A DNA stretch of 32,000 nt from Nitratidesulfovibrio vulgaris str. Hildenborough (GTDB taxonomy: Bacteria > Desulfobacterota > Desulfovibrionia > Desulfovibrionales > Desulfovibrionaceae): NCBI RefSeq assembly GCF_000195755.1, contig NC_002937.3, positions 3,060,001-3,092,000 on the forward strand, given 5' to 3'. Positions 4,162-17,251 of the stretch are shown here, piece after piece. Position 1 is the stretch's first letter. Each line of letters starts with the position of its first letter. The notes below the pieces were generated by a model that was given only the letters and a program-made list of their open reading frames with translations, was not told where the DNA came from and did not search any database. Both the position numbers and the translations under genes were made by a program.

Positions 4162-5199
4162 TCAGAATCGCAACGCATACTCCGCAAACTTGTAGCGCAG
4201 GGTACGCGGGCTCACTCCCAGCAGGCGGGCCGCCTCGCCCTTGTTGCCGCCAGTGGCGCGCATGGCCTTGAGGATGACGCGCACCTCGGCCTCTCGTCTG
4301 GCCCGGTCGAGGCTCAGGTCTTCCGGCACCTCGTGGGGCACCCCCACCTCCACCGCAGCGGCTGAACGCAACTCAAGCGGCAGATGTTCAGGCCCGAGAA
4401 CGCCTTCCGGCGCGAGCAACGCGATGCGTTCCACAAGATTCTTGAGCTCGCGCACGTTCCCCGGCCACTGGTACGCCGCCAGCGCCTGTTCCGTCTCCGG
4501 GGCGAAACGGACACCGGGCCGATGGTACTTGTCGCCATAATGGGTCAGGAAATGCCGTGCCAGCGGCACGACCTCCTCCTTGCGGGCACGCAAGGGCGGA
4601 AGGACCACGGGAATGACATTGAGCCTGTAGAAGAGGTCGGCCCTGAACTGCCCCTGCCCCACCATCTCCTGCAAATCACGGTTCGAGGCGGCGACGATAC
4701 GCGCCTGAAACGGGATGTCACGCTGCCCGCCGATGCGCCTGAAACGCTTCTCTTCCAGCACCCGCAGGAAATCCGCCTGATTGGCACCGGGTATCTCGCC
4801 CACTTCGTCAAGGAAGAGCGTCCCCTCCGAAGCGAGCTCGAAACATCCCTGACTCATTCTGTGCGCCCCGGTGAACGCCCCCTGCTCATGGCCGAAGAAC
4901 TTGTCGGCGAAGAGCTCACCCTCGTGGACTCCGCAATTGACTGCCACAAAAGGCTTTTTGGCTCGAATGCCCATATCGTGGATGAGACGGGCGAAGAGTT
5001 CCTTGCCCGTTCCCGTCTCACCATGAATGAGCACTGGCGCATCGGAGGAGGCGACTTGCGACGCAAGCACCCGCAACCTTTGCATGACGCCTGACAGAAG
5101 CAGGAAGTCCGTTCCGTTCTGAAGCGTTTCGCGCTGGGGCGATACCGTCCCCTCAATGGGAAGAGAATTGCCGCTATGCGGTAATTTTTTGCCGCTCAT
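4162..5199 (-). CDS. Sigma-54-dependent transcriptional activator (bEBP) with no N-terminal sensory or receiver domain (AAA+ plus Fis-type HTH only)
   Basis: 345 aa. Walker A GETGTGKE, canonical sigma-54 contact loop GAFTGA, Walker B LFLDEVG, WPGNVRELKN, C-terminal HTH GNKGEAARLLGVSPRTLRYK. Only ~30 residues precede the AAA+ core. Confidence 0.9.
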   Translation of the reverse strand: MSGKKLPHSGNSLPIEGTVSPQRETLQNGTDFLLLSGVMQRLRVLASQVASSDAPVLIHGETGTGKELFARLIHDMGIRAKKPFVAVNCGVHEGELFADKFFGHEQGAFTGAHRMSQGCFELASEGTLFLDEVGEIPGANQADFLRVLEEKRFRRIGGQRDIPFQARIVAASNRDLQEMVGQGQFRADLFYRLNVIPVVLPPLRARKEEVVPLARHFLTHYGDKYHRPGVRFAPETEQALAAYQWPGNVRELKNLVERIALLAPEGVLGPEHLPLELRSAAAVEVGVPHEVPEDLSLDRARREAEVRVILKAMRATGGNKGEAARLLGVSPRTLRYKFAEYALRF

Positions 5200-5245: not shown

Positions 5246-5261
5246 TGGCACGGAACTTGTT
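5246..5261 (+). promoter_or_regulatory. Candidate sigma-54 (-24/-12) promoter for the TauE-like permease operon
   Basis: TGGCACGgaacTTGT matches the TGGCACG-N4-TTGC consensus at 10 of 11 defined positions (the final C is a T). It lies 47 nt from the divergent activator ATG and 185 nt upstream of the permease ATG. Confidence 0.55.
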
Positions 5262-5445: not shown

Positions 5446-6444
5446 ATGAAAACCCGCAACGCGACGAGGCTCCTCTGCCTGCTCACCTGCGTAGCCCTGG
5501 CCGGGGTGGCCCTGCTTCTCATGGCCATGCCCGCGACAGCCACCAGTGCCGCACAAGACGTGGCCCAGTCGGTCACCCAGTCCGCAGCGGCCCTACCCGG
5601 CAACCATCCGTGGTGGTTCTGGCCCACCACACTGCTGTTCTTCTGTTTCATTCTCGGCATCATCGCCGTTCTCGCCGGTGTGGGCGGCGGCGTGCTCTTC
5701 GTTCCGCTGGTCAGCGGCTTCTTCCCCTTCCACCTCGACTTCGTCCGCGGCGCGGGTCTTCTGGTGGCCCTCGCCGGTGCCCTCGCCGCCGGCCCGGGCC
5801 TTCTCAAGCGCAACCTCGCCAGTCTCCGCCTCGCACTTCCGGTGGCCCTCATCGCCTCCAGCTGCGCCATCGTGGGCGCCATGCTGGGCCTCGCCCTGCC
5901 CACCAACATCGTGCAGATATTCCTCGGTGCCACCATCCTCTTCATCGCGTGCCTGCTCCTGTTCTCCAAGAACTCGGTACGCCCCGAAGTGAAACAGCAG
6001 GACGCCATCGGCCTCGCCCTCGGCCTTCAGGGCGCCTTCATCGAACCCACCACCGGTGAGACCGTGGAATGGAAGACCCACCGCACGCTTCCCGGTCTGC
6101 TGCTGTTCATCATCATCGGCATCATGGCGGGCATGTTCGGCCTTGGCGCAGGCTGGGCCAACGTTCCGGTGCTCAACCTGCTGATGGGCGTTCCGCTGAA
6201 GGTCGCCGTGGGAACCTCCAAGTTCCTGCTCTCCATCACCGACACCTCGGCAGCGTGGGTCTACCTGAATCAGGGCTGTGTCATCCCGCTGATGGCCATT
6301 CCCTCGATCGTCGGCCTGATGCTCGGTTCAGTGGTCGGCGTGCGTCTGCTCGCCGTGGCCAAGCCCAAGTTCATCCGCTACATGGTCATCGGCGTTCTGA
6401 TATTCGCCGGAGCCAAAGCCCTGCTCAAGGGCCTCGGCATCTAA
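5446..6444 (+). CDS. TauE/SafE (TSUP, DUF81) family anion/sulfite-type exporter permease
   Basis: The track ORF starts at 5206, but that extension covers the promoter. The in-frame ATG at 5446 has AGAGGA 9 nt upstream. 332 aa, polytopic, with the family signature LAGVGGGVLFVPLV near the N-terminus and a second glycine-rich half (GMFGLGAGWANVPVL). Confidence 0.8.
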   Translation: MKTRNATRLLCLLTCVALAGVALLLMAMPATATSAAQDVAQSVTQSAAALPGNHPWWFWPTTLLFFCFILGIIAVLAGVGGGVLFVPLVSGFFPFHLDFVRGAGLLVALAGALAAGPGLLKRNLASLRLALPVALIASSCAIVGAMLGLALPTNIVQIFLGATILFIACLLLFSKNSVRPEVKQQDAIGLALGLQGAFIEPTTGETVEWKTHRTLPGLLLFIIIGIMAGMFGLGAGWANVPVLNLLMGVPLKVAVGTSKFLLSITDTSAAWVYLNQGCVIPLMAIPSIVGLMLGSVVGVRLLAVAKPKFIRYMVIGVLIFAGAKALLKGLGI

Positions 6445-6456
6445 GGAGGTCGCACA

Positions 6457-6873
6457 ATGTCGCTTTCCACCAAGGCTTCTCCGGCGCAGCTGCGCTACGC
6501 CAACATGCTCTTCTACGGCTGCTGGTCTTCGCTGGCACTCATGGTCATCACCTACGTGCTGTATGTCAGTGGCATCATCACCCCCCACGTGCCACTCGAG
6601 CAGGTCACACAGCTGTGGGGACAGCGCGTGGACGTCTACCTCGCACAGGGCAACATCCCCACAGGCTGGGGCTGGCTCGCGCTCATCGGGCAGGGCGACT
6701 TCATGAACTTCATCGGCATCGTGCTGCTGGCGGGCATGACCATCATCTGCTACGTGCCGCTGGTCTTCGCCTTCATCCGCAGCAAGGAGCCCATCATGTT
6801 CTGGGTGGCCGTTGGCGAAATCGTCGTGCTGTGCGTGGCGGCATCGGGCATCTTCGGTTCCGGCGGACACTAG
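6457..6873 (+). CDS. Small integral membrane protein, possibly the DUF1634-type partner of TauE-family permeases
   Basis: 138 aa. AAGGAGG 7 nt upstream. 12 nt after the permease stop. Hydrophobic helices (CWSSLALMVITYVLYVSGI, FIGIVLLAGMTIICYVPLVFAF, FWVAVGEIVVLCVAASGIFG). The family assignment comes from memory of typical gene pairing, not from motifs. Confidence 0.7.
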   Translation: MSLSTKASPAQLRYANMLFYGCWSSLALMVITYVLYVSGIITPHVPLEQVTQLWGQRVDVYLAQGNIPTGWGWLALIGQGDFMNFIGIVLLAGMTIICYVPLVFAFIRSKEPIMFWVAVGEIVVLCVAASGIFGSGGH

Positions 6874-6957: not shown

Positions 6958-8382
6958 ATGAAGCAAGCATCCCTGCCAGCAGGTGCCCGGATAGCCGGGC
7001 TCGTCGGGCGCGAACTCGCGCTCGGCCCGGTCTTCGACGCCATCCCCACCGGGTTGGCGGTGCTCGATGCCGACCTGCGCATATGCCTGATGAACCGCGC
7101 CCTTGAGACCATGACGGGGTTCACCACCGCCGAGGTGGCGGGCATCCCCTGCCGGCATGTCCTTCGGGCCAGCGTATGCCTGCACCGCTGCCCTACCCGC
7201 ACCGCTGTCTGCGATGCCACCGGCGGCAACGCGCCATGCCATGCACAAGAAGGCGACCTGCTCAACCGCCATCGCCGCCGCATTCCCGTGCGCCTGACCC
7301 TCGCCCCTCTCCATGATGCGCAGGGGCAGCTGTGCGGCTGGCTGCATACCGCCGAAGACCTTTCGCTCGTCCGTGAGCTTGAAGAACGGTGCAGCAAGGG
7401 GCAGGCATCCGGGCCACTGGTGGGGCGCAGCGTGGTGATGGAGGAACTCTTCCGTACCGTGCAGGCCCTTGCCCAGACCGAGACCCCCGTGCTCATCACG
7501 GGCGAGACGGGCACAGGCAAGGACGCCGTGGCCGAGACCATCCACAAGGCATCACCGCGCGGTCGCGAACCGTTCGTCAAGGCCAGCCTGTCATCCCTTC
7601 CCGATTTTCTGGTGGAGTCCGAACTGTTCGGCCACCGCAAGGGCGCGTTCCCCGGGGCCGAAGAGGACAAGCCCGGCCGTTTCAGGATGGCACAGGGCGG
7701 TACGTTGTGCCTGTCCGAGTTGGGCGACCTGCCCCCCGCCATGCAGGGACGGCTCGTGACGTTCCTCGACGAGGGACTGGTCTGGCCCGTGGGCGCCACA
7801 GACCCCGTCAGGTGCGACGTGCGCCTGCTCGTTGCCAGCAACCTCGACCTGGAGGCCATGGTCGCTTCCGGAAGGCTGCGCGAAGACCTCTACAGCAGAC
7901 TGGCAGCCGTGCGCATCCACCTGCCCCCGCTACGCGAACGGGGCGAAGACCTCGAGTTCCTGCTCAGCCACTACCTTGCCCATTTCGCCGCCAGATTGCG
8001 CAAGACCATACACGGGTTCTCCGGCAAATCTCTGCGCGTGCTGCTTGCCTACGGCTTTCCGGGCAACGTGCGTGAGCTCAAGAACATCGTCGAGTACGCC
8101 GCGACCCTGTGTACGGGCGAGGTCGTCATGCCCTCGCACCTGCCGGCCTACCTCTTCCACACGCGTCCGGCAGCCGCACCCCCGCGTGCCATCGAACGCG
8201 ACACCCCCAAGGGTGCCGCCGAAGACGAGGCATCAGCCCGCAGCAGCGTCGTCGACCTCGAACGCCGTCTCATCGTGGACGCACTGGCACGCGCCGGAAA
8301 CCGCAAGGGCGAGGCCGCCCGCATCCTCGGCTGGGGCAGAAGCACCCTGTGGCGCAAGATGAAACAGTTCGGACTGGAGTGA
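6958..8382 (+). CDS. Sigma-54-dependent transcriptional activator with an N-terminal PAS domain (PAS-AAA+-HTH)
   Basis: PAS-like N-terminus (FDAIPTGLAVLDADLRICLMNRALETMTGFTTAEVAGIPC). AAA+ core (GETGTGKD, LCLSELGDL, FPGNVRELKN). C-terminal HTH (GNRKGEAARILGWGRSTLWRKM). The sigma-54 contact loop reads GAFPGA instead of GAFTGA. The start could alternatively be 6895 (21 extra codons). Confidence 0.85.
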   Translation: MKQASLPAGARIAGLVGRELALGPVFDAIPTGLAVLDADLRICLMNRALETMTGFTTAEVAGIPCRHVLRASVCLHRCPTRTAVCDATGGNAPCHAQEGDLLNRHRRRIPVRLTLAPLHDAQGQLCGWLHTAEDLSLVRELEERCSKGQASGPLVGRSVVMEELFRTVQALAQTETPVLITGETGTGKDAVAETIHKASPRGREPFVKASLSSLPDFLVESELFGHRKGAFPGAEEDKPGRFRMAQGGTLCLSELGDLPPAMQGRLVTFLDEGLVWPVGATDPVRCDVRLLVASNLDLEAMVASGRLREDLYSRLAAVRIHLPPLRERGEDLEFLLSHYLAHFAARLRKTIHGFSGKSLRVLLAYGFPGNVRELKNIVEYAATLCTGEVVMPSHLPAYLFHTRPAAAPPRAIERDTPKGAAEDEASARSSVVDLERRLIVDALARAGNRKGEAARILGWGRSTLWRKMKQFGLE

Positions 8383-8385
8383 CCC

Positions 8386-8733
8386 ATGCCCGCGACACTG
8401 CTCATCCCCCTCTACCGCGACGAGGTCGCACCACGCTTCGACCTCGCCGGTGAAGTGCTGCTCGTGACCCTCGACGCCGAAGGGACCGAGACGGAACGCT
8501 CCAGCGTCGTGCTTGCCCATGCCTCTTCCGAGGACATCTGCCGCATGGCACTGGAAGAGAAGGTCCGCACCGTCATATGCAGCGGCATTGACGAGGAATT
8601 CTGGCAGTACCTGCGCTGGAAGCGTATTGAGGTCATCGACAACGTCATCGGCCCGGTCGAGGAGGCGTTGCGACGTCATGCGGCCGGAATGCTCCGTTCA
8701 GGCGACATCCTCTTCCACAGGGAGGGGGCATGA
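8386..8733 (+). CDS. Small NifX/NifB-C-terminal/NafY-fold protein (dinitrogenase FeMo-cofactor-binding-like domain family)
   Basis: 115 aa. Starts 3 nt after the activator stop. The pattern VAPRFDLAGEVLLVTLD ... VRTVICSGIDEEFWQYLRWKRIEVIDNVIGPVEEAL resembles the family pattern (V-x-P-H-F-G ... V-D-V-V-I-x-G-x-I-G ... G-I-x-V ... EAL). The call rests on similarity by eye only. Confidence 0.6.
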   Translation: MPATLLIPLYRDEVAPRFDLAGEVLLVTLDAEGTETERSSVVLAHASSEDICRMALEEKVRTVICSGIDEEFWQYLRWKRIEVIDNVIGPVEEALRRHAAGMLRSGDILFHREGA

Positions 8734-10463
8734 AGAACCCGCTAGGCACCATGCTCTCGCGTCTGCGCTCGGTGTTCGACGTTCCGGATGAGATCGCGCC
8801 GGAACGCTACCGCATGCTGCGGCGCAAGATAACGCTGCTCATGACGGCGGTGTCGGTTCTGCCGCTGCTCATCCTCACCGCCGTAAGCTACCACCAGTAC
8901 CAGAGCACCCTCACCCGCGAAATCGTCACCCCCGTGCGGGCGCTGGTGAACAAGACCCGCCACTCGTTCGAACTGTTCCTTGCCGAACGGTCGTCCACCG
9001 TGAGCCTTCTCGCCAAGACCTATTCCATGGCGGAACTTTCCGACGAGAAGAACCTCAACCGCATCTTCCTCGCGCTCAAGGGCGAGTTCCCCGGCTTCGT
9101 CGACCTCGGGGTCATCGACGGCAGGGGCGTGCAGGTGGGCTATGTCGGGCCGTACGACGTACGGGGGAAGAACTACTCCGAGGCGGACTGGTACAACCGC
9201 ACCCGCGTGAAGGGTGTCTACATCAGCGACGTGTTCATGGGTTTCAGGCGCTTTCCGCACATCGCCATCGCCGTGCAGCGCATGAACCCCGACGGCAGTT
9301 CGTGGATGCTTCGCGCCACCATCGAGACCACGCAGTTCGACAGGCTCATCGCCTCCATGGGGCTCGACCCGGAGAGTGACGCCTTCCTCATCAACACCGC
9401 CGGAGTACTCCAGACCAACTCGCGCTTCTACGGCAATGTGCTCGACGTGATGCCCATGCCGGTGCCCCACCTGAGCTACGAGCCCTCGATCATCGACACG
9501 GAAGATCCCGAGGGCAGGCAGATTTTCCTCTCTTCAGCCTTTCTGCAGAATGCCGACTTCGCCATCGTGGCGGTCAAGCCCAAGACCGAGATCCTGCGCC
9601 CGTGGACATCGCTGCGCAGCGACCTTCTGATTTTCGTCGCCTTCAGTGTCGCCCTCATCATCTCAGCGGCCTTCGGCTTCACCGACATGCTCGTACGACG
9701 CATGCGCGACAGCGACGAACGGCGCATCGCCGCCTTCGTGCAGATAGAGCACACCCAGAAACTCTCCTCCATCGGCAGGCTGGCGGCGGGCGTCGCCCAC
9801 GAAATCAACAACCCCCTCGCCATCATCAACGAAAAGGCGGGCCTTGCGGCAGACCTCATCGCGCTTTCGCAGGACTTTCCGCAGAAAGAACGCTTCTCGG
9901 CCATCGTCGAGGCCATCTCGCGTTCTGTCGACCGTTGCCGGTCCATCACGCACAGGCTTCTCGGCTTCTCGCGCCGCATGGACGCCACCTACGAGCAACT
10001 CGACGTCAACGGCATCCTCAAAGAGACCATGAGCTTCCTGGAACAGGAGGCCGTGCACCGTTCCATCACCATCGGCACCAGTCTCGACGCGGGGCTGCCA
10101 CGCATCACCTCCGACAGGGGGCAGTTGCAGCAGGTCTTCCTCAACATCATCAACAACGCCTTCGCCGCAGTGCAGGACGGTGGTTCCGTGACGCTCACCA
10201 CGTTCGCAGCGGACGGCGGCATGGTGGGCGTCTCGATACAGGACAACGGAAAGGGCATGTCTGAAGAAGTGCAGCGGCACATCTTCGAACCGTTCTTCAC
10301 CACCAAGAAGACGGCGGGGACGGGCCTAGGCATGTTCATCACCTACGGCATCATCAAGCGACTGGGCGGAGAGATCGGCATCAACAGCAGGGAGGGCGTT
10401 GGCACCACCGTCACCGTCTACCTGCCGCAGGACGCGCCCGCACCGCAATCGCTGGAGAACTAG
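8730..10463 (+). CDS. Sensor histidine kinase with a periplasmic Cache-like domain (TM-sensor-TM-HisKA-HATPase)
   Basis: 577 aa. The ATG overlaps the preceding stop (ATGA at 8730-8733). TM helices LLMTAVSVLPLLILTAVSY and LLIFVAFSVALIISAAFGF flank a ~250-aa extracytoplasmic region. H-box AAGVAHEINNPLAII, N-box FLNIINNAFAA, G-boxes IQDNGKGM and GTGLGM. Confidence 0.9.
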   Translation: MKNPLGTMLSRLRSVFDVPDEIAPERYRMLRRKITLLMTAVSVLPLLILTAVSYHQYQSTLTREIVTPVRALVNKTRHSFELFLAERSSTVSLLAKTYSMAELSDEKNLNRIFLALKGEFPGFVDLGVIDGRGVQVGYVGPYDVRGKNYSEADWYNRTRVKGVYISDVFMGFRRFPHIAIAVQRMNPDGSSWMLRATIETTQFDRLIASMGLDPESDAFLINTAGVLQTNSRFYGNVLDVMPMPVPHLSYEPSIIDTEDPEGRQIFLSSAFLQNADFAIVAVKPKTEILRPWTSLRSDLLIFVAFSVALIISAAFGFTDMLVRRMRDSDERRIAAFVQIEHTQKLSSIGRLAAGVAHEINNPLAIINEKAGLAADLIALSQDFPQKERFSAIVEAISRSVDRCRSITHRLLGFSRRMDATYEQLDVNGILKETMSFLEQEAVHRSITIGTSLDAGLPRITSDRGQLQQVFLNIINNAFAAVQDGGSVTLTTFAADGGMVGVSIQDNGKGMSEEVQRHIFEPFFTTKKTAGTGLGMFITYGIIKRLGGEIGINSREGVGTTVTVYLPQDAPAPQSLEN

Positions 10464-10466
10464 CCC

Positions 10467-10853
10467 ATGCAGGATCTGAAGGTCTTACTCGTCGACGACG
10501 AAGAGGAGTTCGTCACCACCCTTTCCGAACGTCTGGCACTGCGGGGCCTTGCCACACGTGTGGCCATGGACGGCGAACAGGCGTTGCGCGAAGTGCAGAA
10601 CGACCCTCCCCATGTGGTGGTGCTCGACCTCATGATGCCGGGCATCAAGGGTACCGAGACGCTACGCCGCATCAAGGCGATGCATCCGGGCGTGCAGGTC
10701 ATCCTGCTCACCGGGCACGGCAGCACACGCGACGGTATCGAAGGCATGCGCCTCGGGGCCTTCGACTACCTCACCAAACCCCTGCGGCTTGAAGACCTGC
10801 TGGAGAAGCTGCGCGAGGCCGGAGCACTGGCCCGCACGGCCATGGGAGCCTGA
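10467..10853 (+). CDS. Stand-alone response-regulator receiver (CheY-like, no output domain)
   Basis: 128 aa, starting 3 nt after the kinase stop. LLVDDEEEF, phospho-acceptor context VVVLDLMMPG, LTGHGS, conserved LTKP. Confidence 0.9.
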   Translation: MQDLKVLLVDDEEEFVTTLSERLALRGLATRVAMDGEQALREVQNDPPHVVVLDLMMPGIKGTETLRRIKAMHPGVQVILLTGHGSTRDGIEGMRLGAFDYLTKPLRLEDLLEKLREAGALARTAMGA

Positions 10854-10854
10854 C

Positions 10855-11514
10855 ATGCGCGAGAACGCCTGTGTGGGATGTCTCACCGCATCCGCATCGC
10901 ACGAACTGCAGAACGCCCTCGCGGTCATCCGCGAATCTGCCGGCCTGATGCAAGACCTCATCGCCCTTGGCGGAGAGAACATCCCCCGGCGTGAGCGCAT
11001 CGTCGAACTGCTCTCTCTCATCCAGCAGCAGGTGGCGCGCGGCGGCGAGTTGGCGGGGGGGCTCAACACCCTTGGTCACGCATGGGAAGAGGATGACGGC
11101 GACCTCGCCCGCATCCTCGAAGAGTTCGTCATCCTTGCCGGGCGCATGGGCAGGATGCGTTCCGTCACCGTGGGACTGGCACCGGGCGAAAGCGGCTTGC
11201 GCGCGCCGAGTGCGGGGCTTGCCTTGCGAGTGCTGCTGTTCGACCTTTTGCAGACCTGCCTTGAAGAGGCTCCCGGTTGCGCGCTCACCTTCGCCCCGGC
11301 AAGGCGCGACGGCATTCCCGGAATACATCTGCGAGTAGGACTGGCACGTTGCGACGCGACTACAGACGTACTGCGCCGACTCGACGCGCAACTTGCCCGT
11401 CTCGGAGCCCGTAAGGAGCCCGACAACGGGCACGGAACGCCCGCAAGGGACGAACCGGACGGAGTGTTGTACTATTTCACGGCCTGTCCCTCTGCAACAG
11501 GGCACAGGGCATAG
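10855..11514 (+). CDS. Soluble histidine-kinase-like protein with an intact H-box but a degenerate ATP-binding domain (pseudo-kinase or phosphotransfer candidate)
   Basis: In-frame ATG 1 nt after the receiver stop; the track ORF start at 10789 overlaps the receiver gene. 219 aa. H-box SASHELQNALAVIRESAGL (His codon at 10900-10902). The region where the N-box is expected reads LLFDLLQTCLEE, with no Asn. No DxGxG or GxGxG motifs were found. Confidence 0.7.
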   Translation: MRENACVGCLTASASHELQNALAVIRESAGLMQDLIALGGENIPRRERIVELLSLIQQQVARGGELAGGLNTLGHAWEEDDGDLARILEEFVILAGRMGRMRSVTVGLAPGESGLRAPSAGLALRVLLFDLLQTCLEEAPGCALTFAPARRDGIPGIHLRVGLARCDATTDVLRRLDAQLARLGARKEPDNGHGTPARDEPDGVLYYFTACPSATGHRA

Positions 11515-11633
11515 CGGTTTTTGCTTCCGTGCGACGCCGGTTTCATATATGATACGTACATGACTGCTCATCTGAAACAATTGAAACATACCGTGACAGT
11601 ACATTGCCACATATGTTTCGGAGGAGATCAGAA

Positions 11634-11933
11634 ATGAAACGTATCCGCGAAGCACTGGAACGCAGTTTTGCCGGGGCGGCCTTCGCCGAAGCCGGTGCCC
11701 ACGACGAGGCCCTTGCCATGGCAGGTATCACCCCGCTGGTGGGATGTGCCACAAGCGTGGAGGACATGTTCGCAGCCGTCGCTTTCGCCGAAGCCGGTTG
11801 CCGTGAAGAAGCCCTTGAGGTTCTCGGTTGTGTGAGGCCCGTACGCCGGGTCATCCATTCCGACTTCCTCAGCAGCGTGGGACTTGGCGAAGTGCCCGTG
11901 TGGTACGGCCTTGCCCCGGCCATGACGAATTAG
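11634..11933 (+). CDS. Hypothetical small protein with an internal duplicated FAEAG-x3-EAL motif
   Basis: 99 aa. GGAGGAG 6-7 nt upstream of the ATG at 11634 (the track ORF starts at 11604). The two motif copies are encoded by an exact 15-nt DNA repeat TTCGCCGAAGCCGGT at 11682-11696 and 11784-11798. No recognisable family. Confidence 0.6.
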   Translation: MKRIREALERSFAGAAFAEAGAHDEALAMAGITPLVGCATSVEDMFAAVAFAEAGCREEALEVLGCVRPVRRVIHSDFLSSVGLGEVPVWYGLAPAMTN

Positions 11934-12131
11934 GCAACGCGAAGCGCCGCAAGGTCTTCCGTCGCGCTGCCTGCACGACGCCACGCCGCAGAGATGCGTG
12001 GCACAACGCCGCGCCCCCGCACACAGGAGGCAGGGGCGCGCGGAAGACCGCATACGATCACCACGCCGGGCGACCGGCCCGGCGACGGCGCAACCGCTTG
12101 CCGATAACCGAATGAGCCAAGGAGAGCAGTC

Positions 12132-12587
12132 ATGAAGGGTATCAAGGTCATGCTCGTGGACGACGAGGAAAGCTTCGTCCGTACACTTGCCGAACGTATG
12201 CAGATGCGCGACGCGGGTACCAAGGTCGCCCTCACCGGCGAAGAGGCACTGCAACTCGTCTCCACCGGCGAAGTGCCCGACGTCATGGTGCTCGACCTGC
12301 GCATGCCCGGCGTGGACGGCATGGAAGTGCTGCGCCGCGTGAAGAAGGACTACCCCAAGGTGCAGGTCATCGTCCTCACCGGCCATGGCACGGAGAAGGA
12401 CGAAGAGGAGGCCCGCAGGCTTGGCGCCTTCGAATATCACAAGAAGCCCGTGGATATCGACATCCTCGTCCGCGACATCCGCCGGGCCTTCCGCGAGACC
12501 CTCGAAGACACCATGGTGGCCGCCACCCTTGCACAGGCTGGCGACTACGAGGGGGCCAAGCAGATTCTCGACGAAAGCGACAAGTAG
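12132..12587 (+). CDS. Response-regulator receiver with a short C-terminal tail (no DNA-binding or enzymatic output)
   Basis: 151 aa. AAGGAGAG 5 nt upstream. MLVDDEESF, VMVLDLRMPG, LTGHGT, HKKP. The ~30-aa tail contains LAQAGDYEGAKQIL. Confidence 0.9.
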   Translation: MKGIKVMLVDDEESFVRTLAERMQMRDAGTKVALTGEEALQLVSTGEVPDVMVLDLRMPGVDGMEVLRRVKKDYPKVQVIVLTGHGTEKDEEEARRLGAFEYHKKPVDIDILVRDIRRAFRETLEDTMVAATLAQAGDYEGAKQILDESDK

Positions 12588-12600
12588 CCCAGTACGGGCC

Positions 12601-13725
12601 ATGCGGGTTCTTCTCGTCGACGACGAAGAGGCGTTCGTCAACCTGTTGGCGGAACGCCTCGAGACACGGGGCATCACGGTGCTTGTCGCCCATGATGTGG
12701 CCTCGGCACTCGACCTGCTGGCGGCACATCCTGTCGATGTGGCGGTGCTGGATGTCTGCATGCCCGGACGCGACGGTCTCGACCTGTTGCGGGTCATGCG
12801 GGAACGCCACCCTCTCGTGGAGGCGCTCATGCTGACCGGCTCGTCGGATGTCCGCAACGCCGTCGAGGGAATGCGACTCGGGGCCTGCAACTACCTGCTC
12901 AAACCCGTCGACATCGAAGAGTTGCTCCGTGAACTGCGTCTCGCCCATGAACGCAAGATACGCCGCGAAGAGAGCGCCCGCATGATCGAGGCGGGCAAGC
13001 TCGCCTCGATGGGCCGCATGGCGGAAGGCGTGGCGCACGAGATCAACAACCCCGTCAATATCATCGCCAACGCTGCGGGCTGGATCGAAGACCTGCTCGA
13101 AGAGCCGGACATCGCATCCGGCCCGCACGTGGCGGAGATGCGCCGCACGCTCGCCAAGATCAAACAGCAGGGCGTGCGTGTGCGCGAAATCACCCGCAAA
13201 CTGCTCTGCTTCGGACGCGGTCTCGACCCCCGACCGCAACCTGTGGCCTGTGCCACGCTACTGCGCGAGACACTGCAACTCGTCGCCAGCCGCTGTGAGG
13301 CCCTTGCCGTGGACGTGGTGGTAGACCTGCCCGAAGGGCTGCCCGAGATCATGGCCCCGCCCGTGGAATTGCGGCAGGTCTTCCTGCATGTGATCGAGAA
13401 CGCGCTGGATGCCATGGAAGAGAACGGCGGCACGCTCACGGTCAGACTCAGGCTCATGCACGGGCAGGACGAAGAGCACGACGCCTTGCACGTGGCCATC
13501 ACCGACACGGGACACGGCATCGCACCGGCCCTGTTGCCGCGCGTCTTCGACCCCTTCTTCTCGACCCGCAGCGTCGGCAGGGGCATGGGCCTCGGACTTT
13601 CGGTGAGTTACGGCGTGGTACGTGCCCTTGGCGGTGACATCAACCTCACCAGCGACCCCGGACGCACGGTCTGTTCCATTCGCCTGCCGCTGACCGCGAA
13701 ACCGCCCTGCGCCCGCGAGGCGTGA
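12601..13725 (+). CDS. Cytoplasmic hybrid receiver-histidine kinase (REC-HisKA-HATPase)
   Basis: In-frame ATG at 12601, 13 nt after the preceding stop; the track start at 12385 overlaps the upstream gene. 374 aa. REC domain (LLVDDEEAF, VAVLDVCMPG, LLKP). H-box AEGVAHEINNPVNII, N-box HVIENALDA, G-boxes ITDTGHGI and GMGLGL. No TM segments. Confidence 0.85.
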   Translation: MRVLLVDDEEAFVNLLAERLETRGITVLVAHDVASALDLLAAHPVDVAVLDVCMPGRDGLDLLRVMRERHPLVEALMLTGSSDVRNAVEGMRLGACNYLLKPVDIEELLRELRLAHERKIRREESARMIEAGKLASMGRMAEGVAHEINNPVNIIANAAGWIEDLLEEPDIASGPHVAEMRRTLAKIKQQGVRVREITRKLLCFGRGLDPRPQPVACATLLRETLQLVASRCEALAVDVVVDLPEGLPEIMAPPVELRQVFLHVIENALDAMEENGGTLTVRLRLMHGQDEEHDALHVAITDTGHGIAPALLPRVFDPFFSTRSVGRGMGLGLSVSYGVVRALGGDINLTSDPGRTVCSIRLPLTAKPPCAREA

Positions 13726-13820
13726 AGACCCGCGGGACCAGCCGCCCCGAATCTCCCCATCCCGCGCTGTCGTGGCCGCTGTATCCGGCGACGTATCGAA
13801 GCGTGTCCTGTGCCCCCGTG

Positions 13821-15017
13821 CTACGCGAAGCGACCGTGACCATTGTTGCCCGCCCATGAAGGCAGCAGCACCGAGACGCGTGCGCCACGTCCGAAACCGG
13901 CATCCACCTCGATGTCCCAACCGCACTCGCCAGCGATGCGCCGGGCGATGCACAGCCCCATGCCCACCCCGTCAGCCTTGCGCGAGAAGAAGGGGTCGAA
14001 GATGAATGCCATGTCTTCGGGGGCGATGCCGGGGCCATTGTCCGCCACCTCGACCCGGCACAGTCCTCCTACGCACAGCAGCCTGCATGAGACCTCACCG
14101 CCGTCTTCCCGCGCGAAGTCCGAGGCATTGGCCAGAATCTCGAAGACAAGACGCTGCAAGAGCGAGGCAGCCCCGTGCACCATGTGCCCGTCCGGCACCT
14201 CGACCTGCCAGTGCAGGGTACGCCCCTGCTGTGCAGCACGCTGCCGCGCCTGTTCGAGGGCTGCCAGCACCGACTCGCCCACGGGCACCACCGTCCGGAT
14301 GGCATGGGGAAGCGAGGCGAAATCGGATACGGCACCGACCATGTGCTCCAGCCTTCGCGACTCTTCGATGATGGTATCAAGATAGCCACGTACCGGGTCT
14401 TCGGCCGGGGCGCGCCGCACAGCAAGACTGGCGAAGCCCCCTATGGTCATCGTGCGGTTGCGCACCTGATGCGCCACCGACATGGCAAGATGCGCCAGCC
14501 TCTCGCGCCCCTCCTCCACAGCGCGCAGGTCGCGGAACGAACGCAACGCAGCCGTCACCGTGGTGTGCAGCCGTTCTGCCGTGAGTTCGGTCTTGTGCCG
14601 GTAATCGTTGATGTCCAGTTCAGCGATGACGCGGTGTTCGGGGGCATGTCCCGGTTGTCCGGTACGCAGCACGATGCGCACGAGGTTGTTGCCTAGTTCC
14701 TCCCGCACCTTGCGCGCCACCTGCAATCCGGCATCGTTGCTTTCCATGACGACATCCAGCAACAGGACGGCGGTATCGGGGTGCCGACGCAGCATGTCCA
14801 GACTCTCGGCACCACTCGTGGCTTCGAGAAGGTGCAGCTTGCGCCCCTCGAATGAAAAATCGGAAAGAACCAGCCGCGTGATGGTCTGCACCTCGGCATC
14901 ATCGTCGGCCACCAGCACGTACCACGGAGTCGCTGCCGCACGGGGAACGTCCTGCCCGGGCTGTTCCTCCTCCGCGAAGAACAGCAGGTCGTCTTTCTCT
15001 TGCCCTGTCTGGGTCAT
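13821..15017 (-). CDS. Cytoplasmic hybrid receiver-histidine kinase, convergent with the cluster
   Basis: The ATG at 15017 is preceded by GGAGGAG; the track start at 15155 adds 46 unsupported codons. 398 aa. REC domain (VLVADDDAEV, VLLLDVVMES, INDYRHKTEL, a signature I associate with the DUF3369/RpfG-type receiver). Atypical H-box MSVAHQVRNRTMTIGGF. ATPase N-box FEILANASDF, G-boxes VADNGPGI and GMGLCI. Confidence 0.8.
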   Translation of the reverse strand: MTQTGQEKDDLLFFAEEEQPGQDVPRAAATPWYVLVADDDAEVQTITRLVLSDFSFEGRKLHLLEATSGAESLDMLRRHPDTAVLLLDVVMESNDAGLQVARKVREELGNNLVRIVLRTGQPGHAPEHRVIAELDINDYRHKTELTAERLHTTVTAALRSFRDLRAVEEGRERLAHLAMSVAHQVRNRTMTIGGFASLAVRRAPAEDPVRGYLDTIIEESRRLEHMVGAVSDFASLPHAIRTVVPVGESVLAALEQARQRAAQQGRTLHWQVEVPDGHMVHGAASLLQRLVFEILANASDFAREDGGEVSCRLLCVGGLCRVEVADNGPGIAPEDMAFIFDPFFSRKADGVGMGLCIARRIAGECGWDIEVDAGFGRGARVSVLLPSWAGNNGHGRFA

Positions 15018-15265: not shown

Positions 15266-17251
15266 CTACCTTCCGGTAAGTTGCAGGCGACCTTCAATGA
15301 GGTCGGAGACGACCCCGGGGTCGGCGAGAGTAGAAGTGTCCCCGAACTCGCTGGTGGCCCCGGCGGCGATCTTGCGCAGGATGCGCCGCATGATCTTGCC
15401 GCTACGCGTCTTGGGGAGCCCCTCTGCGAACTGGAGCACATCGGGCGTGGCGATGGGGCCTATCTCCTTGCGCACCCATGCGCGCAGCTCGGCGCGGAGC
15501 TCCTCGGTCTCTTCCGCATCGGCGCCGAGAGTCACGTAGGCGTAGATGGCCTCACCCTTCACGGCGTGTGGCATGCCCACGACGGCGGCTTCCGCGACGC
15601 TGGGATGGGCGACCAGCGCAGACTCGACCTCGGCCGTGCCCATGCGGTGTCCCGAGACGTTGATGACGTCGTCGAGGCGGCCCATGATCCAGAAATAGCC
15701 GTCCGTATCGGTGCGTGCGCCATCGCCGGACTCGTACATGCCGGGAAAGCGTTCGAAGTATGTCGAGCGGTACCGTTCGGGCGAGCCGAAGATGCCGCGC
15801 AACATGCCCGGCCACGGCTTGCGGATGACAAGATGCCCGCCTTCGTTGGGCCCTGCGGGGCTGCCGTCGGGCCGGACGATGGCGGCATCGACGCCGGGCA
15901 GCGGCTGCGTTGCCGAACCGGGCTTGAGGGTGGTGGCGTAGGGCAGGCCCGAAATCATGATGCCACCCGTCTCTGTCTGCCACCATGTGTCGACGATGGG
16001 CAGGCGTCCCTTGCCGATGTGGGTATGGTACCACATCCACGCTTCGGGGTTGATGGGTTCGCCCACCGACCCGAGGACACGCAACGACGAAAGGTCGTGC
16101 CGTTCCGTCCAGTCCGTGCCTTCACGCATGAGTGCGCGGACGACGGTGGGGGCGGTGTAGAAGATGTTGACGCGGAACTTCTCGACGATGCGCCAGAAAC
16201 GGTCGGGCGAGGGCCACGAGGGCACACCCTCGAACATCAGCGAGGTCGCCCCGAGGGCCAGCGGGCCGTAGACGATGTAGCTGTGCCCGGTAATCCAGCC
16301 GATGTCGGCGGTGCACCAGTACACGTCGTCGTCCTGCACGTCGAAGACCCACTGCGTGGTGTGCGCGGCATAGGTAAGATAGCCGCCCGTGGTGTGCACC
16401 ACGCCCTTGGGCTTGCCGGTGCTGCCACTGGTGTAGAGGATGAACAGCATGTCCTCCGCATCCATCTCCTCGCAGGGGCGGTCGACGTCGAGGGTGCGGT
16501 CGGCCATGACCTCATGCCACCACAGGTCACGCCCCTCCTCCATGGTCACTTCGAGGCTCCCGCGGTTGACGACGACGACCTTCTCCACGCTGGGACACTG
16601 GCGCACGGCCTCGTCGACGTTCACCTTGAGGGGGATGCGCCGTCCGGCACGCAGCACCGCGTCGGCGGTGACCACGACCTTGGCCTCGCAGTCGTGGATG
16701 CGATTCTGAAGGCTCACAGCCGAGAATCCGGCAAAGACGATGGAATGGACAGCCCCGATGCGCGCGCAGGCGAGCATGGCGACAGCCAGTTCAGGAATCA
16801 TGGGCATGTACAGCGAGACGCGGTCGCCCTTGTGCACGCCCATCTTGCGCAGAACGGCGGCGAAACGGCGCACCTCGTCATACAGCATCTGGTAGGTGAG
16901 CACCCGCACGTCCTCTTCGGGTTCGCCCTGCCAGATGATGGCGGCCTTGTTGCGCCGGTTTCCTGCCACATGCCTGTCGAGGCAGTTGTGGGCCACGTTG
17001 AGCCTTCCGCCCTTGAACCACTCGATGCGCGGTTCGTTCATGTCGGCATCCAGCACGGTATCCCACGGCTTGAACCAGTCGATGAGCTGTGCCGCACGTT
17101 CGCCCCAGAAGCCTTCGGGGTCTTCGGCGGCACGCCGCACAAGCGCCTCTCGCGCGGCTTCGCCGGACACATGTGCCCTGCCCCGGCTGTCAGCGGGAGG
17201 GGCGAAGTGGCGCTTCTCATCCATCATGCTCTCGATACGTTCCTGGCTCAT
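15266..17251 (-). CDS. acs: Acetyl-CoA synthetase (AMP-forming)
   Basis: ATG at 17251 with GGAGG 5 nt upstream; the track start at 17491 adds 80 codons with no support. 661 aa. Typical Acs N-terminus ([32 protein letters not shown]), AMP-binding motif [12 protein letters not shown]-terminal [18 protein letters not shown]. Confidence 0.95.

Follow-up and report, generated by a model that had tools for sequence, protein, structure and literature searches.

A conserved signalling and transport gene unit of sulfate-reducing bacteria that may be built around a multi-step phosphorelay

Introduction

The phosphorelays nearest to the gene cluster described here are Spo0F-Spo0B-Spo0A of Bacillus, CckA-ChpT-CtrA/CpdR of Caulobacter and Pak-SdrG-PhyT-PhyR of Sphingomonas. 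Spo0B is a kinase-like histidine phosphotransferase. In these relays a stand-alone or intermediate receiver passes phosphate to a dimeric kinase-like protein, as with the kinase-like histidine phosphotransferases ChpT (PMC3433190) and PhyT (PMC5898713), and such proteins consist of a DHp hairpin bearing a conserved histidine and an alpha/beta domain that resembles CA but is unable to use ATP. Of the two receivers that ChpT serves, one is a single-domain REC. In the RedCDEF system of Myxococcus xanthus, a membrane kinase, a non-autophosphorylating kinase-like protein and receiver-only regulators likewise occur together with no output domain. RedE does not autophosphorylate; it takes phosphate from RedD and dephosphorylates RedF (PMC2755868).

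Desulfovibrio vulgaris Hildenborough has in OrpR a sigma-54 activator of PAS-AAA+-HTH architecture with a C-x8-C-x3-C motif in its PAS domain, and the orp operons also encode Nitro_FeMo-Co-fold proteins. The cysteines C52, C61 and C65 of OrpR bind a redox-sensitive [4Fe-4S] cluster, and ChIP-seq placed a minor OrpR peak between DVU2956 and DVU2958, with DVU2958 expression unchanged on OrpR deletion (PMC8359166). The locus analysed here has been described by Kazakov et al. 2015, with the same genes, as the DVU2956 regulon, listed as DVU2957-DVU2964 under 'transmembrane transport' (PMC4641369). That description does not include a relay architecture, a pseudo-kinase, a hairpin motif, the wider conservation of the locus or an explanation for the orphan DVU2960. 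The window, meaning the whole 32,000-nucleotide stretch of DNA that we analysed, matches the region DVU2956-DVU2968 of this organism.

Results

Nine open reading frames make up the signalling cluster, with the coordinates and junctions given in an earlier note on the DNA, and a Pfam search backed every domain call. On the plus strand, the gene for a PAS-type activator (PAS-EBP, 6958-8382) is followed after 3 nt by a NifX-like gene (8386-8733), which shares a 4-nt ATGA overlap with the gene for a dCache histidine kinase (8730-10463). Three nucleotides separate the latter from REC1 (10467-10853), the stop codon of which is 1 nt from the start of the gene for an H-box-only kinase-like protein, or pseudo-kinase (10855-11514). 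A 119-nt AT-rich gap then precedes the gene for a 99-residue protein (11634-11933), and a 198-nt gap lies between this gene and REC2, a receiver with a tail (12132-12587), from which 13 nt lead to a REC-HK hybrid (REC3-HK, 12601-13725). These two gaps suggest that the plus-strand run comprises more than one transcription unit. A further REC-HK with a DUF3369-type receiver (13821-15017) converges on the run from the minus strand. Response_reg was found in four proteins, which bears out the claim of four receivers without a fused output domain. Pfam detected no Hpt domain in any of the cluster products, again as claimed, although the H-box-only protein is an obvious candidate equivalent that the claim had passed over.

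We took the pseudo-kinase as anchor and compared 75 loci. Eight of the nine genes are conserved together and in the same order in Desulfovibrionaceae, Desulfobacterales, Desulfomonilaceae, Syntrophobacteraceae and Nitrospirota-type MAGs, and the order HK-REC-psHK-(rep)-REC+tail-REC was found repeatedly across orders. The same gene order in 75 loci from several orders places the arrangement far beyond chance. The loci are phylogenetically related, so that counts and P values exaggerate their independence; L011 and L012, for instance, are identical. Protein identities of 26-60% among the loci argue against one recently transferred element. The cluster is a genuine conserved signalling unit of several orders of sulfate-reducing bacteria, and the co-conservation on which the claim of the earlier note depends holds for all but the convergent REC-HK. 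This gene occurs only in strains of its own species (L001-L006), and its only matches of comparable coverage in other loci (23-30% identity) are other kinase genes; it is an unrelated neighbour outside the conserved unit. Conservation of acs and Pat was limited to the genus.

The H-box-only protein represents a conserved family of about 220 residues that has a kinase-core fold and an invariant H-E-x-x-N motif but lacks ATP-binding boxes. Its sole Pfam match is a sub-threshold HisKA (E 1.8e-4). His16 (HELQN) lies in a DHp hairpin that is followed by a small alpha/beta CA-like domain, and the AF2 model (pLDDT 83.8) contains two long helices and a five-stranded alpha/beta domain with three helices. 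H[ED]xxN is kept in 74 of the 75 orthologues, across orders; GxGxG was found in none of the 75 and DxGxG in only two, as a stray match, and in a profile alignment to ZraS the N-box and G1 positions are substituted. Foldseek matches of the model were histidine-kinase cores, headed by the kinase region of RetS as complexed with the GacS DHp (7n0e_B, E 1.3e-7), with DivL (4q20) also listed. However, the rank of RetS is not diagnostic because ordinary kinases score in the same order and TM values are low (0.32-0.45). Across loci, the alpha1 docking helix, LAIIxExAGLMxDL, is near-identical in this protein and the Cache kinase, with a proline at H+5 in the true kinase only, and the gene is either 1 nt from that of REC1, as in the window, or overlaps it in other loci. 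The protein is a recent paralogue of the adjoining HisKA kinase. Its sequence has no detectable relation to that of ChpT or Spo0B, its best PDB profile matches being true kinases, and given the paralogy to its neighbour the resemblance to ChpT and Spo0B is convergent. By analogy with Spo0B, ChpT and PhyT, whose anatomy it shares, the H-box-only protein is most likely a stand-in for the missing Hpt.

The Cache kinase is a membrane sensor with dCache_1, a HisKA domain with the H-box HEINNP and a complete HATPase_c, and in 65 of the 67 loci with enough flank an orthologue precedes the pseudo-kinase. Its core is nearest to the AtoS/ZraS types, below cut-off. REC1 (Response_reg 4.2e-29) stands alone with a complete phospho-acceptor pocket, and DD/D/T/K are kept in 61-65 of 65 orthologues. 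REC2 (Response_reg 3.6e-24) carries one copy of a hairpin motif (MVAATLAQAGDYEGAKQILDE) in its C-terminal tail; the window protein has its acceptor residues intact, as do 26 of the 38 sequences in the REC2 group, and the remaining 12, which lack them, are probably extra, degenerate receivers caught by the grouping. The acceptor residues of REC3 are kept in nearly all orthologues, and in the window all three receivers have the acceptor Asp, the acidic pair, Thr and Lys, as well as very similar alpha1 helices. REC3 is fused here to a complete HisKA/HATPase_c kinase core, the DHp docking residues of which are unlike those of the Cache kinase and pseudo-kinase. Its position is occupied by a REC-HK in 8 of 31 assignable loci and by a stand-alone REC in 23; L021 and L058 have single-domain RECs there, and non-Desulfovibrionaceae loci have a stand-alone REC. 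Since REC3 here would feed a second kinase that has no target in the cluster, part of the output would lie elsewhere. No receiver scored as high as the cut-off for a named NCBIfam regulator, and there are no chemotaxis genes around the cluster, in agreement with the view that the stand-alone receivers are not known regulators.

The 99-residue protein contains two FAAxAFAEAGE-x3-A helix-turn-helix repeats and a C-terminal FLxSVGLGxVxVxYG motif, and its AF2 model has two hairpins (pTM 0.37). The AFAEAGE hairpin motif is common to this protein and the REC2 tail, where it is kept in most orthologues across orders; the tail is a conserved motif and not junk. The 143 homologues of the 99-residue protein are all small and nameless, with no Pfam domain, and the family has 513 representatives at E<=1e-3, some relatives being fused to IS630-like HTH proteins. 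We propose this uncharacterised family as a candidate output adaptor.

The PAS-EBP, putatively DVU2960, has a PAS-AAA+-HTH architecture (Sigma54_activat 8.9e-55, PAS_4, HTH_8). Its cysteines C65, C74 and C78 (C-x8-C-x3-C) are kept in 31-34 of 34 orthologues, with the same spacing as the OrpR triad (PMC8359166). The sigma-54 contact loop is degenerate here (GAFPGA), in contrast to the GAFTGA of 19 non-Desulfovibrionaceae orthologues, and the whole family has an odd Walker B with T/S/A-E in place of D-E, so that activity is in doubt even in members with GAFTGA. After the pseudo-kinase, about 17 of the 19 loci with an intact loop have a sigma-54 promoter with a score of 10 or more out of 11, versus none of 16 with a degenerate one (background, 1.8% of windows at this score); no such promoter follows the pseudo-kinase in this genome. 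In all 13 assessable loci that have a DVU2956-like activator, the PAS-EBP loop is degenerate, and DVU2960 showed no DNA binding in EMSA with the DVU2957 upstream region (PMC4641369). The NifX-fold protein (115 residues; Nitro_FeMo-Co, PF02579, 29.1 bits against a cut-off of 26.3) has MJ0327 (2qtd) and TM1290 (1rdu) as its nearest solved relatives. Its gene is present in all 35 loci that have the PAS-EBP, and both are missing from 26 loci that retain the Cache kinase. Thus, although the overlap with the kinase gene is real, the NifX-fold protein is the companion of the PAS activator and not, as the overlap had been taken to indicate, of the kinase.

The nine-gene cluster does not cover the whole of the unit, which also takes in, just upstream, a TauE/TSUP transporter with its DUF1634 partner and, in divergent orientation, a second sigma-54 activator. 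This activator (4162..5199, minus strand; putatively DVU2956) has no N-terminal sensor domain (Sigma54_activat 7.2e-62, AAA_lid_14, HTH_8), an intact GAFTGA and a canonical Walker B (LFLDEVG), and divergent DVU2956-like orthologues occur in 14 Desulfovibrionaceae-type loci. DVU2956 binds upstream of DVU2957 by EMSA (PMC4641369), and the PAS activator is not the only transcription factor present, contrary to what the earlier note had stated. A sigma-54-type promoter, TGGCACGGAACTTGTT (5246..5261, plus strand), lies upstream of the transporter gene with one mismatch to TGGCAC-N5-TTGCW. It is the only site in the window that scores at least 10 of 11, a sigma-54 promoter upstream of this gene was already predicted (PMC4641369), and related Desulfovibrionaceae loci have equivalent sites ahead of TauE. 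The transporter (5446..6444, plus strand; TauE 4.1e-36) is putatively DVU2958, which Marietou 2018 (PMC5840216) places in TSUP clade B as a candidate for sulfate transport in sulfate reducers, sulfate being a phylogenetic guess. TauE was found in 29 of the 75 loci, upstream or downstream of the relay genes, and in 19 of the 35 loci with full 9-kb flanks. The next gene (6457..6873, plus strand) encodes a 138-residue membrane protein with no Pfam match at E<=0.1; it is taken as a DUF1634-like TSUP partner from its co-occurrence with TauE (28 of 29 loci) and the NCBI name of its homologues, 'DUF1634 domain-containing protein'. When look-ups were anchored on DUF1634, relay genes adjoined TauE/DUF1634 in two of three cases, and one pair had no relay nearby. 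In other lineages, DASS and CBS genes lie beside the relay in about 23-24 loci. The recurrence of TSUP/DUF1634, and elsewhere DASS/CBS, next to the relay genes makes control of anion transport a likely output and the TSUP/TauE transporter a likely candidate target, where the earlier note had seen no encoded output.

Discussion

We suggest that sulfate-reducing Thermodesulfobacteriota have a conserved unit for signalling and transport, of which the cluster is the regulatory half, and that the core of the cluster is a multi-step phosphorelay, a reading to which we give a probability of about 50%. A multi-step or branched relay, as the earlier note had it, is still the best reading. In such a relay, the periplasmic dCache kinase would autophosphorylate and pass phosphate to REC1, from which it would move to the conserved histidine of the H-box-only protein, which would replace an Hpt, and then to REC2 with its hairpin tail and to REC3, here with its second kinase core. 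This branch would recall the two receivers served by ChpT. A point of difference from the Spo0B, ChpT and PhyT relays is that the terminal receivers have no DNA-binding domain. The direction of transfer is an inference. The 99-residue protein, with its two copies of the REC2 tail motif, and REC2 itself would probably form the output interface, with the likely output being control of transport of an anion, possibly sulfate or another sulfur oxyanion.

The PAS-EBP, with its OrpR-type cysteine triad, and the NifX-fold protein would form a second module with a redox or cofactor input. Unlike OrpR, the PAS-EBP has GAFPGA, no identified regulon and no binding in EMSA, and its [4Fe-4S] cluster is putative. 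In most lineages, a PAS activator with GAFTGA could act at the sigma-54 promoter ahead of the rep-REC2-REC3(-transporter) genes, whereas in this genome and other Desulfovibrionaceae that promoter has been lost, the loop reads GAFPGA, and the sensor-less DVU2956-type activator would drive the operon from the promoter before the transporter.

The H-box-only protein might instead mainly take phosphate away from one receiver, as a phosphatase or as an acceptor, with its access controlled through phosphorylation by a second receiver, so that, by a four-component logic like that of RedCDEF, the level of one stand-alone REC would be set with no forward relay. The Asn at H+4 of H-E-x-x-N is the HisKA phosphatase signature. 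The motif is invariant in 74 of 75 orthologues, and its His, H+1 Glu and H+4 Asn also fit a dedicated phosphatase such as RedE, a point against the relay. In addition, a membrane HK, an ATP-incapable HK-like protein and REC-only regulators with no output domains parallel RedC/RedE/RedD/RedF, and a docking face in common with the kinase would suit a phosphatase that shares its substrate with the kinase. However, the cluster has no equivalent of RedD, a dual receiver, and RedE retains a HATPase-type region; the Red system in turn has no PAS-EBP/NifX module, hairpin-motif protein or transporter linkage. The three phospho-competent receivers, their similar alpha1 helices and the order REC-psHK-REC-REC fit forward transfer equally well. 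We hold RedCDEF-like logic to be less likely than the relay, and because phosphotransferases such as PhyT are bifunctional (PMC5898713) it may belong to the same mechanism as the relay.

It is more doubtful that the protein is a pseudokinase of the RetS or DivL type, one that never carries phosphate and tunes the Cache kinase or the REC-HK either by pairing in a DHp heterodimer or through contact with a phosphorylated receiver. A DHp so closely paralogous to that of the neighbouring kinase could allow heterodimers and both RetS and DivL were among the Foldseek matches, but the leading rank of RetS has little meaning where ordinary kinases score alike, and pure binding would have no need of the His, H+1 acid and H+4 Asn found in nearly all orthologues. 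DivL carries a Tyr at the position of the H-box His. Least credible is an accidental juxtaposition of independent two-component pairs and unrelated small genes. Such an origin would suit the species-restricted convergent REC-HK, the genus-restricted acs and Pat and the gaps that split the plus-strand run, but for the core we reject it: dozens of loci, spread over different orders, have the eight genes in this same order, a motif links the 99-residue protein to the REC2 tail, and the kinase and pseudo-kinase have a docking helix in common.

The correlation of loop decay in the PAS activator with loss of the promoter and an extra activator is new here. The cluster as a whole represents a largely undescribed form of a familiar signalling scheme.

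Gene organization and published context of the locus

The signalling genes start on the plus strand with a PAS/Sigma54_activat/HTH_8 protein (the PAS activator, 6958-8382; Pfam Sigma54_activat 8.9e-55, HTH_8 6.6e-15), followed on the same strand by a Nitro_FeMo-Co-fold protein (NifX-like, 8386-8733), a dCache/HisKA/HATPase_c kinase (the Cache kinase, 8730-10463), a receiver (REC1, 10467-10853), an H-box-only protein with a weak HisKA match alone (the pseudo-kinase, 10855-11514), a 99-aa protein with no family match (11634-11933), a tailed receiver (REC2, 12132-12587) and a REC-HisKA-HATPase_c hybrid whose receiver we call REC3 (12601-13725). A second hybrid of the same composition converges on these genes from the minus strand (13821-15017). 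An earlier note had described these nine open reading frames and their junctions, and when we rechecked the coordinates all were exact; its domain assignments were each matched by Pfam, and the absence of an Hpt domain that it reported was borne out, with no match to PF01627 in the nine products or the flanking genes. Its frame had, however, omitted what lies directly upstream: on the minus strand a divergent, sensor-less sigma-54 activator (4162-5199), then the sigma-54-type promoter TGGCACGGAACTTGTT (5246-5261), a TauE/TSUP transporter (5446-6444; Pfam PF01925, TauE 4.1e-36) and a 138-aa membrane protein (6457-6873). NCBIfam scans gave no family that reached its cut-off for any product. Consensus scans for sigma-70 promoters and terminators returned counts no higher than the shuffled expectation, with no plus-strand terminator 3’ of 11514, and an Rfam scan found no match in the two intergenic gaps that flank the 99-aa gene and elsewhere only two tRNAs.

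The tRNA genes (1754-1825 and 1846-1920) lie between genes for a MocR-type GntR/aminotransferase regulator (107-1669) and a dCache-GGDEF diguanylate cyclase (2063-3742), neither of which adjoins the relay genes outside the species. On the other side, an AMP-forming acetyl-CoA synthetase gene (acs, 15266-17251, minus strand) is divergent to one for an ADP-forming ACS-like/GNAT protein with Pat-type acetyltransferase architecture (17476-20172, plus strand). Acetyl-CoA synthetase and a Pat-type acetyltransferase form a known kind of enzyme-regulator pairing, and conservation of these two genes is limited to the genus.

The Cache kinase sequence is found unchanged on many public contigs, where the genes also stand in the same order, and over the cluster their DNA matches that of the window at 99.5-99.97% identity. 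Because GAFPGA in the PAS activator and an upstream activator lacking its N-terminal domain correspond to the description of DVU2960 and DVU2956 of Desulfovibrio vulgaris Hildenborough by Kazakov et al. 2015, we infer that the locus is DVU2956-DVU2968. In that work an EMSA showed that the fragment upstream of DVU2957 is shifted by DVU2956 and not by DVU2960; DVU2957-DVU2964 were listed as the regulon of DVU2956, DVU2960 remained without an assigned regulon, and the same T-to-P change in the GAFTGA loop was noted to inactivate NifA (PMC4641369). OrpR ChIP-seq detected a minor peak between DVU2956 and DVU2958, with expression unaffected (PMC8359166). The transporter DVU2958 groups within a TSUP clade that is highly conserved in sulfate reducers, and a role in sulfate transport has been suggested for it (PMC5840216); a review links DVU2956 to biofilm dispersal (PMC8586430). 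The locus has thus far been annotated, and its control by sigma-54 has been published. Our literature search found no paper on the relay architecture or its two unnamed families, on the pairing of the NifX-like protein with the PAS activator, on a coupled decay of activator loop and promoter, or on the link to transporters across sulfate reducers. The cluster is a variation on the phosphorelay theme and not a novel kind of system.

A conserved core gene order

We aligned the pseudo-kinase family and then sought relatives in one genome per species. A word-index homologue search for this protein did not reach beyond the genus, and the wider family was gathered by a degenerate-pattern genome scan. 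All window proteins were mapped onto the 80 loci returned, 75 of which contain the pseudo-kinase ORF; the survey is anchored on this protein, its loci are related by descent, and two of them are identical copies in one genome. The taxa include Nitratidesulfovibrio, Humidesulfovibrio, Desulfobacterales, Desulfomonilaceae, Syntrophobacteraceae, Syntrophaceae and Nitrospirota-type MAGs, and their proteins share between 26% and 85% identity. Among the 67 loci (of 75) with enough flank, 65 have the Cache kinase upstream of the pseudo-kinase, and in 65 of the 75 a receiver lies directly 5’ of the pseudo-kinase. The 99-aa gene (at least 33 loci) follows on the downstream side, then a tailed receiver and one more receiver. 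The nine-gene cluster proposed earlier is in this respect partly upheld: the core order recurs, but the convergent hybrid kinase is absent outside the species. An accidental juxtaposition of independent genes is excluded for the core, whose order recurs among the 75 pseudo-kinase loci.

The loci fall into three recurrent architectures. Type A runs PAS activator, NifX-like protein, kinase, receiver, pseudo-kinase, sigma-54 promoter, 99-aa protein, receiver with tail and receiver, often with CBS, DASS and TauE/DUF1634 genes next in line, and type B is the same without the PAS activator and NifX-like protein. Type C, found in Desulfovibrionaceae and including the window, has a divergent sensor-less activator, sigma-54 promoter, TauE, DUF1634, PAS activator and NifX-like protein, followed by kinase, receiver, pseudo-kinase, 99-aa protein, receiver with tail and the receiver-kinase hybrid. 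The chromosome of Nitratidesulfovibrio sp. HK-II carries the whole cluster on two 20,660-bp stretches (3704989-3725648 and 765886-786545) that are 100% identical; a large region may have been duplicated very recently, or the assembly may be at fault.

An H-box-only protein derived from a histidine kinase

Orthologues of the pseudo-kinase are about 208-270 aa long. The phospho-acceptor H-box, HELQN at His16 in the window, is kept as H-[ED]-x-x-N in 74/75 of them, whereas the ATP-site motifs are gone: GxGxG occurs in 0/75 and a stray DxGxG match in 2/75. Pfam detects no HATPase_c domain in the window protein, which lacks the ATP-binding CA domain of a canonical histidine kinase, and in a profile alignment to ZraS other residues stand at the N-box Asn and in the G1 box. 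An AlphaFold model (AF2, pLDDT 83.8) has helices at 2-42 and 46-76 and then a five-stranded alpha/beta domain with three helices. Foldseek matched this model in the PDB to histidine-kinase cores only (RetS, CpxA, HK853, ZraS and DivL), a comparison in which TM-scores are low owing to domain orientation and which does not distinguish phosphotransferase, phosphatase and inhibitor roles.

The predicted structure, a DHp hairpin with a conserved His and a CA-like alpha/beta domain without an ATP site, matches the anatomy of Spo0B, ChpT (PMC3433190) and PhyT (PMC5898713). At the level of sequence, however, no homology to ChpT or Spo0B was found: neither appeared in the PDB profile search, whose matches were ZraS, FixL chimeras, CckA and ThkA-type kinases, or in the Foldseek top 50. 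The helix below the His reads HExKNVLAIIKESAGLMEDL and in every locus is almost equal to that of the adjacent true kinase, HEINNPLAIINEKAGLMKDL; a Pro at H+5 is found in the true kinase only, and the corresponding helix of the hybrid kinase differs from both. The DHp face below the His selects the receiver partner, so kinase and pseudo-kinase should dock the same receivers. Sequence comparison indicates that the pseudo-kinase arose independently of Spo0B, ChpT and PhyT, by duplication of the neighbouring kinase.

Our best estimate, to which we give a probability of about one half, is a relay in which phosphate would pass from the Cache kinase to REC1, from there to the His-only protein acting as a transferase, and on to REC2 and REC3. 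The RedCDEF system (PMC2755868), in which one operon encodes a kinase, a kinase-like protein that does not autophosphorylate and regulators made of receivers alone, is similar by domain architecture; it differs in that RedD is a dual receiver, whereas by Pfam the receivers of the window are all single domains or REC-HK fusions. The H-box-only protein could instead be a phosphatase like RedE (PMC2755868), which the same residues would fit; we consider this less likely than the relay. The two roles may coexist, as they do in PhyT. A binding role of the RetS/DivL type would leave the invariant His unexplained and is improbable. 

Receivers and the hairpin motif

REC1, REC2 and REC3 of the window all keep the acidic pair, acceptor Asp, Thr and Lys. 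Among orthologues, these residues are present in nearly all members of the REC1 and REC3 groups and in 26/38 of the REC2 group, of which the other twelve are probably extra, degenerate receivers. Many type-A loci have such a degenerate receiver-like gene between the 99-aa gene and REC2, for example at 11232-11753 of locus L058 (Response_reg 7.6e-14), with equivalents in Desulfobacterales; it is absent from the window, and the twelve acceptor-less sequences may correspond to this gene. The alpha1 helices of the window receivers closely resemble one another (EEFVTTLSERL, ESFVRTLAERM and EAFVNLLAERL), and in domains trimmed by HMM before comparison, REC3 of the hybrid kinase shows the same mean identity, 0.44, to the REC1 group and to the REC3 group. 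In loci outside Desulfovibrionaceae, the third receiver is not fused to a kinase but stands alone. The nearest NCBIfam models are NtrC/AtoC-type receiver domains, below cut-off; for REC1 and REC2 the best listed matches are AtoC/NtrC/CpxR-type receivers, far under cut-off, with no CheY model among the matches listed. We rejected a CheY-type chemotaxis role because che genes are absent, Pfam finding no chemotaxis domain among the large ORFs of the window.

By alignment, the 99-aa protein contains the helix-turn-helix unit 'FAAxAFAEAGE-x3-A' twice and carries a 'FLxSVGLxGVxVxYG' motif at its C-terminus. The hairpin recurs once more, as 'MVAATFAEAGEFxTAxxIxD', in the tail of REC2, where it is kept across orders. 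The 99-aa family, which has neither a Pfam model nor a name, has 513 representatives in a library of 1.84 billion proteins. Predicted alone, the window protein forms two hairpins and no compact fold (pTM 0.37).

Roughly one in ten of the best representatives is a fusion of 480-505 aa, with an N-terminus that matches IS630 transposases in their DNA-binding half only, and in two Desulfomonile-type loci such a fusion stands at the position of the 99-aa gene (L030 10777-12224; L017 2979-4052). In these proteins (e.g., P0321, P0333, P0340, P0352 and P0360) the 'AFAEAGE' domain lies at the C-terminus, and the N-terminal match covers the HTH half of IS630-family transposases, the DDE half having diverged. 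The fusion looks like a domesticated transposase serving as a regulator. Such fusions, also at the position of the 99-aa gene, give a hint that the hairpin motif may link the relay to an effector protein, DNA-binding or of another kind.

Probable decay of the PAS activator and its promoter

The PAS activator and NifX-like genes occur together in 35 loci, the activator never alone, and both are absent from 26 loci that retain the relay. From this joint presence and joint absence we conclude that the NifX-like protein belongs with the activator and not with the kinase; we had considered it as a co-sensor of the kinase and rejected this because its distribution follows the PAS activator. The NifX-like protein scores 29.1 bits with PF02579 (gathering score 26.3), and its profile matches include MJ0327 (2qtd, 3.7e-6) and TM1290 (1rdu). 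Three cysteines of the PAS domain, C65, C74 and C78, are kept in 34, 31 and 31 of 34 orthologues; their C-x8-C-x3-C spacing equals that of C52, C61 and C65, the [4Fe-4S] ligands of OrpR (PMC8359166). For the periplasmic dCache region of the kinase, a PDB sequence search yielded no usable relative and so no clue to a ligand.

The activator retains its AAA+ Sigma54_activat domain and C-terminal HTH_8 (Pfam), but its sigma-54 contact loop reads GAFPGA in place of GAFTGA. Nineteen orthologues outside Desulfovibrionaceae have GAFTGA; Nitratidesulfovibrio has GAFPGA, and in Humidesulfovibrio-like genomes the loop is deleted. It is degenerate in 13/13 assessable loci with a DVU2956-like activator. 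About 17/19 of the loci with an intact GAFTGA have a sigma-54 promoter scoring at least 10/11 between the pseudo-kinase and the 99-aa/REC2 genes, compared to 0/16 of those with a degenerate loop and a background of 1.8% of random 360-nt windows. In the window no such promoter precedes the 99-aa gene or REC2, the best site (8/11) being at background level, and the other Desulfovibrionaceae loci likewise have no site of at least 10/11 after the pseudo-kinase. Three Desulfosalsimonas-like MAGs (L052, L053 and L062) show a parallel decay of the loop (GAFPGA, DAFPGA and GAFAGA), of two of the three PAS cysteines and of the promoter's -24 GG. Throughout the PAS-activator family, GAFTGA-intact members included, Walker B reads 'L[T/S/A]EIGD' and not the canonical 'LDEIG' (residues about 247-258), and its ATPase chemistry may, to judge from these residues, be unusual.

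In the simplest reading, the ancestral PAS activator would have driven an operon of the 99-aa protein, REC2, REC3 and possibly the transporter; in Desulfovibrionaceae the transporter would have shifted to the front under a new activator, and DVU2960 would have lost its activating function while remaining conserved as a gene. This would explain the orphan status of DVU2960, since the ancestral promoter was lost and the loop decayed exactly in the lineages that gained a second activator.

Transporters as a likely output

The TauE gene and the small membrane protein occur together in 28/29 loci, upstream of the relay in type C and downstream in types A and B. DASS-family transporters are present in about 23 loci, 7 of them close to that of L058 (at least 68% identity) and 16 distant (22-25%), and CBS proteins in about 24. 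The 138-aa membrane protein has no Pfam match at E<=0.1, and several of its homologues are named DUF1634 by NCBI; with this protein as an independent anchor, the relay was present in two of three contexts and absent in one. Two loci, L058 (15820-18364) and L033, have a PP2C phosphatase gene between DASS and TauE, together with one that fuses a Ser/Thr kinase to an FGE-sulfatase domain. Because TauE/DUF1634, DASS and CBS genes are recurrent neighbours, we propose that control of anion transport is a likely output of the relay, with sulfate a plausible substrate of the transporter. Sulfate reducers alternate between high- and low-affinity sulfate uptake, for which transporters and regulators are not established (PMC5840216).

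A joint reading, more speculative still and rather unlikely to hold in full, is that the locus is the long-postulated regulator of dissimilatory sulfate (or sulfur-oxyanion) uptake. A phosphorelay started by the dCache domain would end in stand-alone receivers that act via the 'AFAEAGE' helix-turn-helix hairpin, which had not been recognised before. It is present in the REC2 tail and doubled in the 99-aa protein; where some lineages have it in a fusion, an IS630 transposase, domesticated and DDE-dead, would be the DNA-binding output. The relay would set the expression or gating of TSUP clade-B/DUF1634 and DASS transporters, and the PAS activator, as a putative Fe-S protein, with its NifX-fold partner would supply a redox or metal-cluster input.

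The locus ties a conserved sensory relay to the best-conserved candidate transporter, and offers a concrete gene set in a genetically tractable model organism. It also brings to light two unnamed families, a His-only protein of kinase origin and a putative adaptor with the hairpin motif, and both extend the catalogue of two-component wiring without classical output domains.
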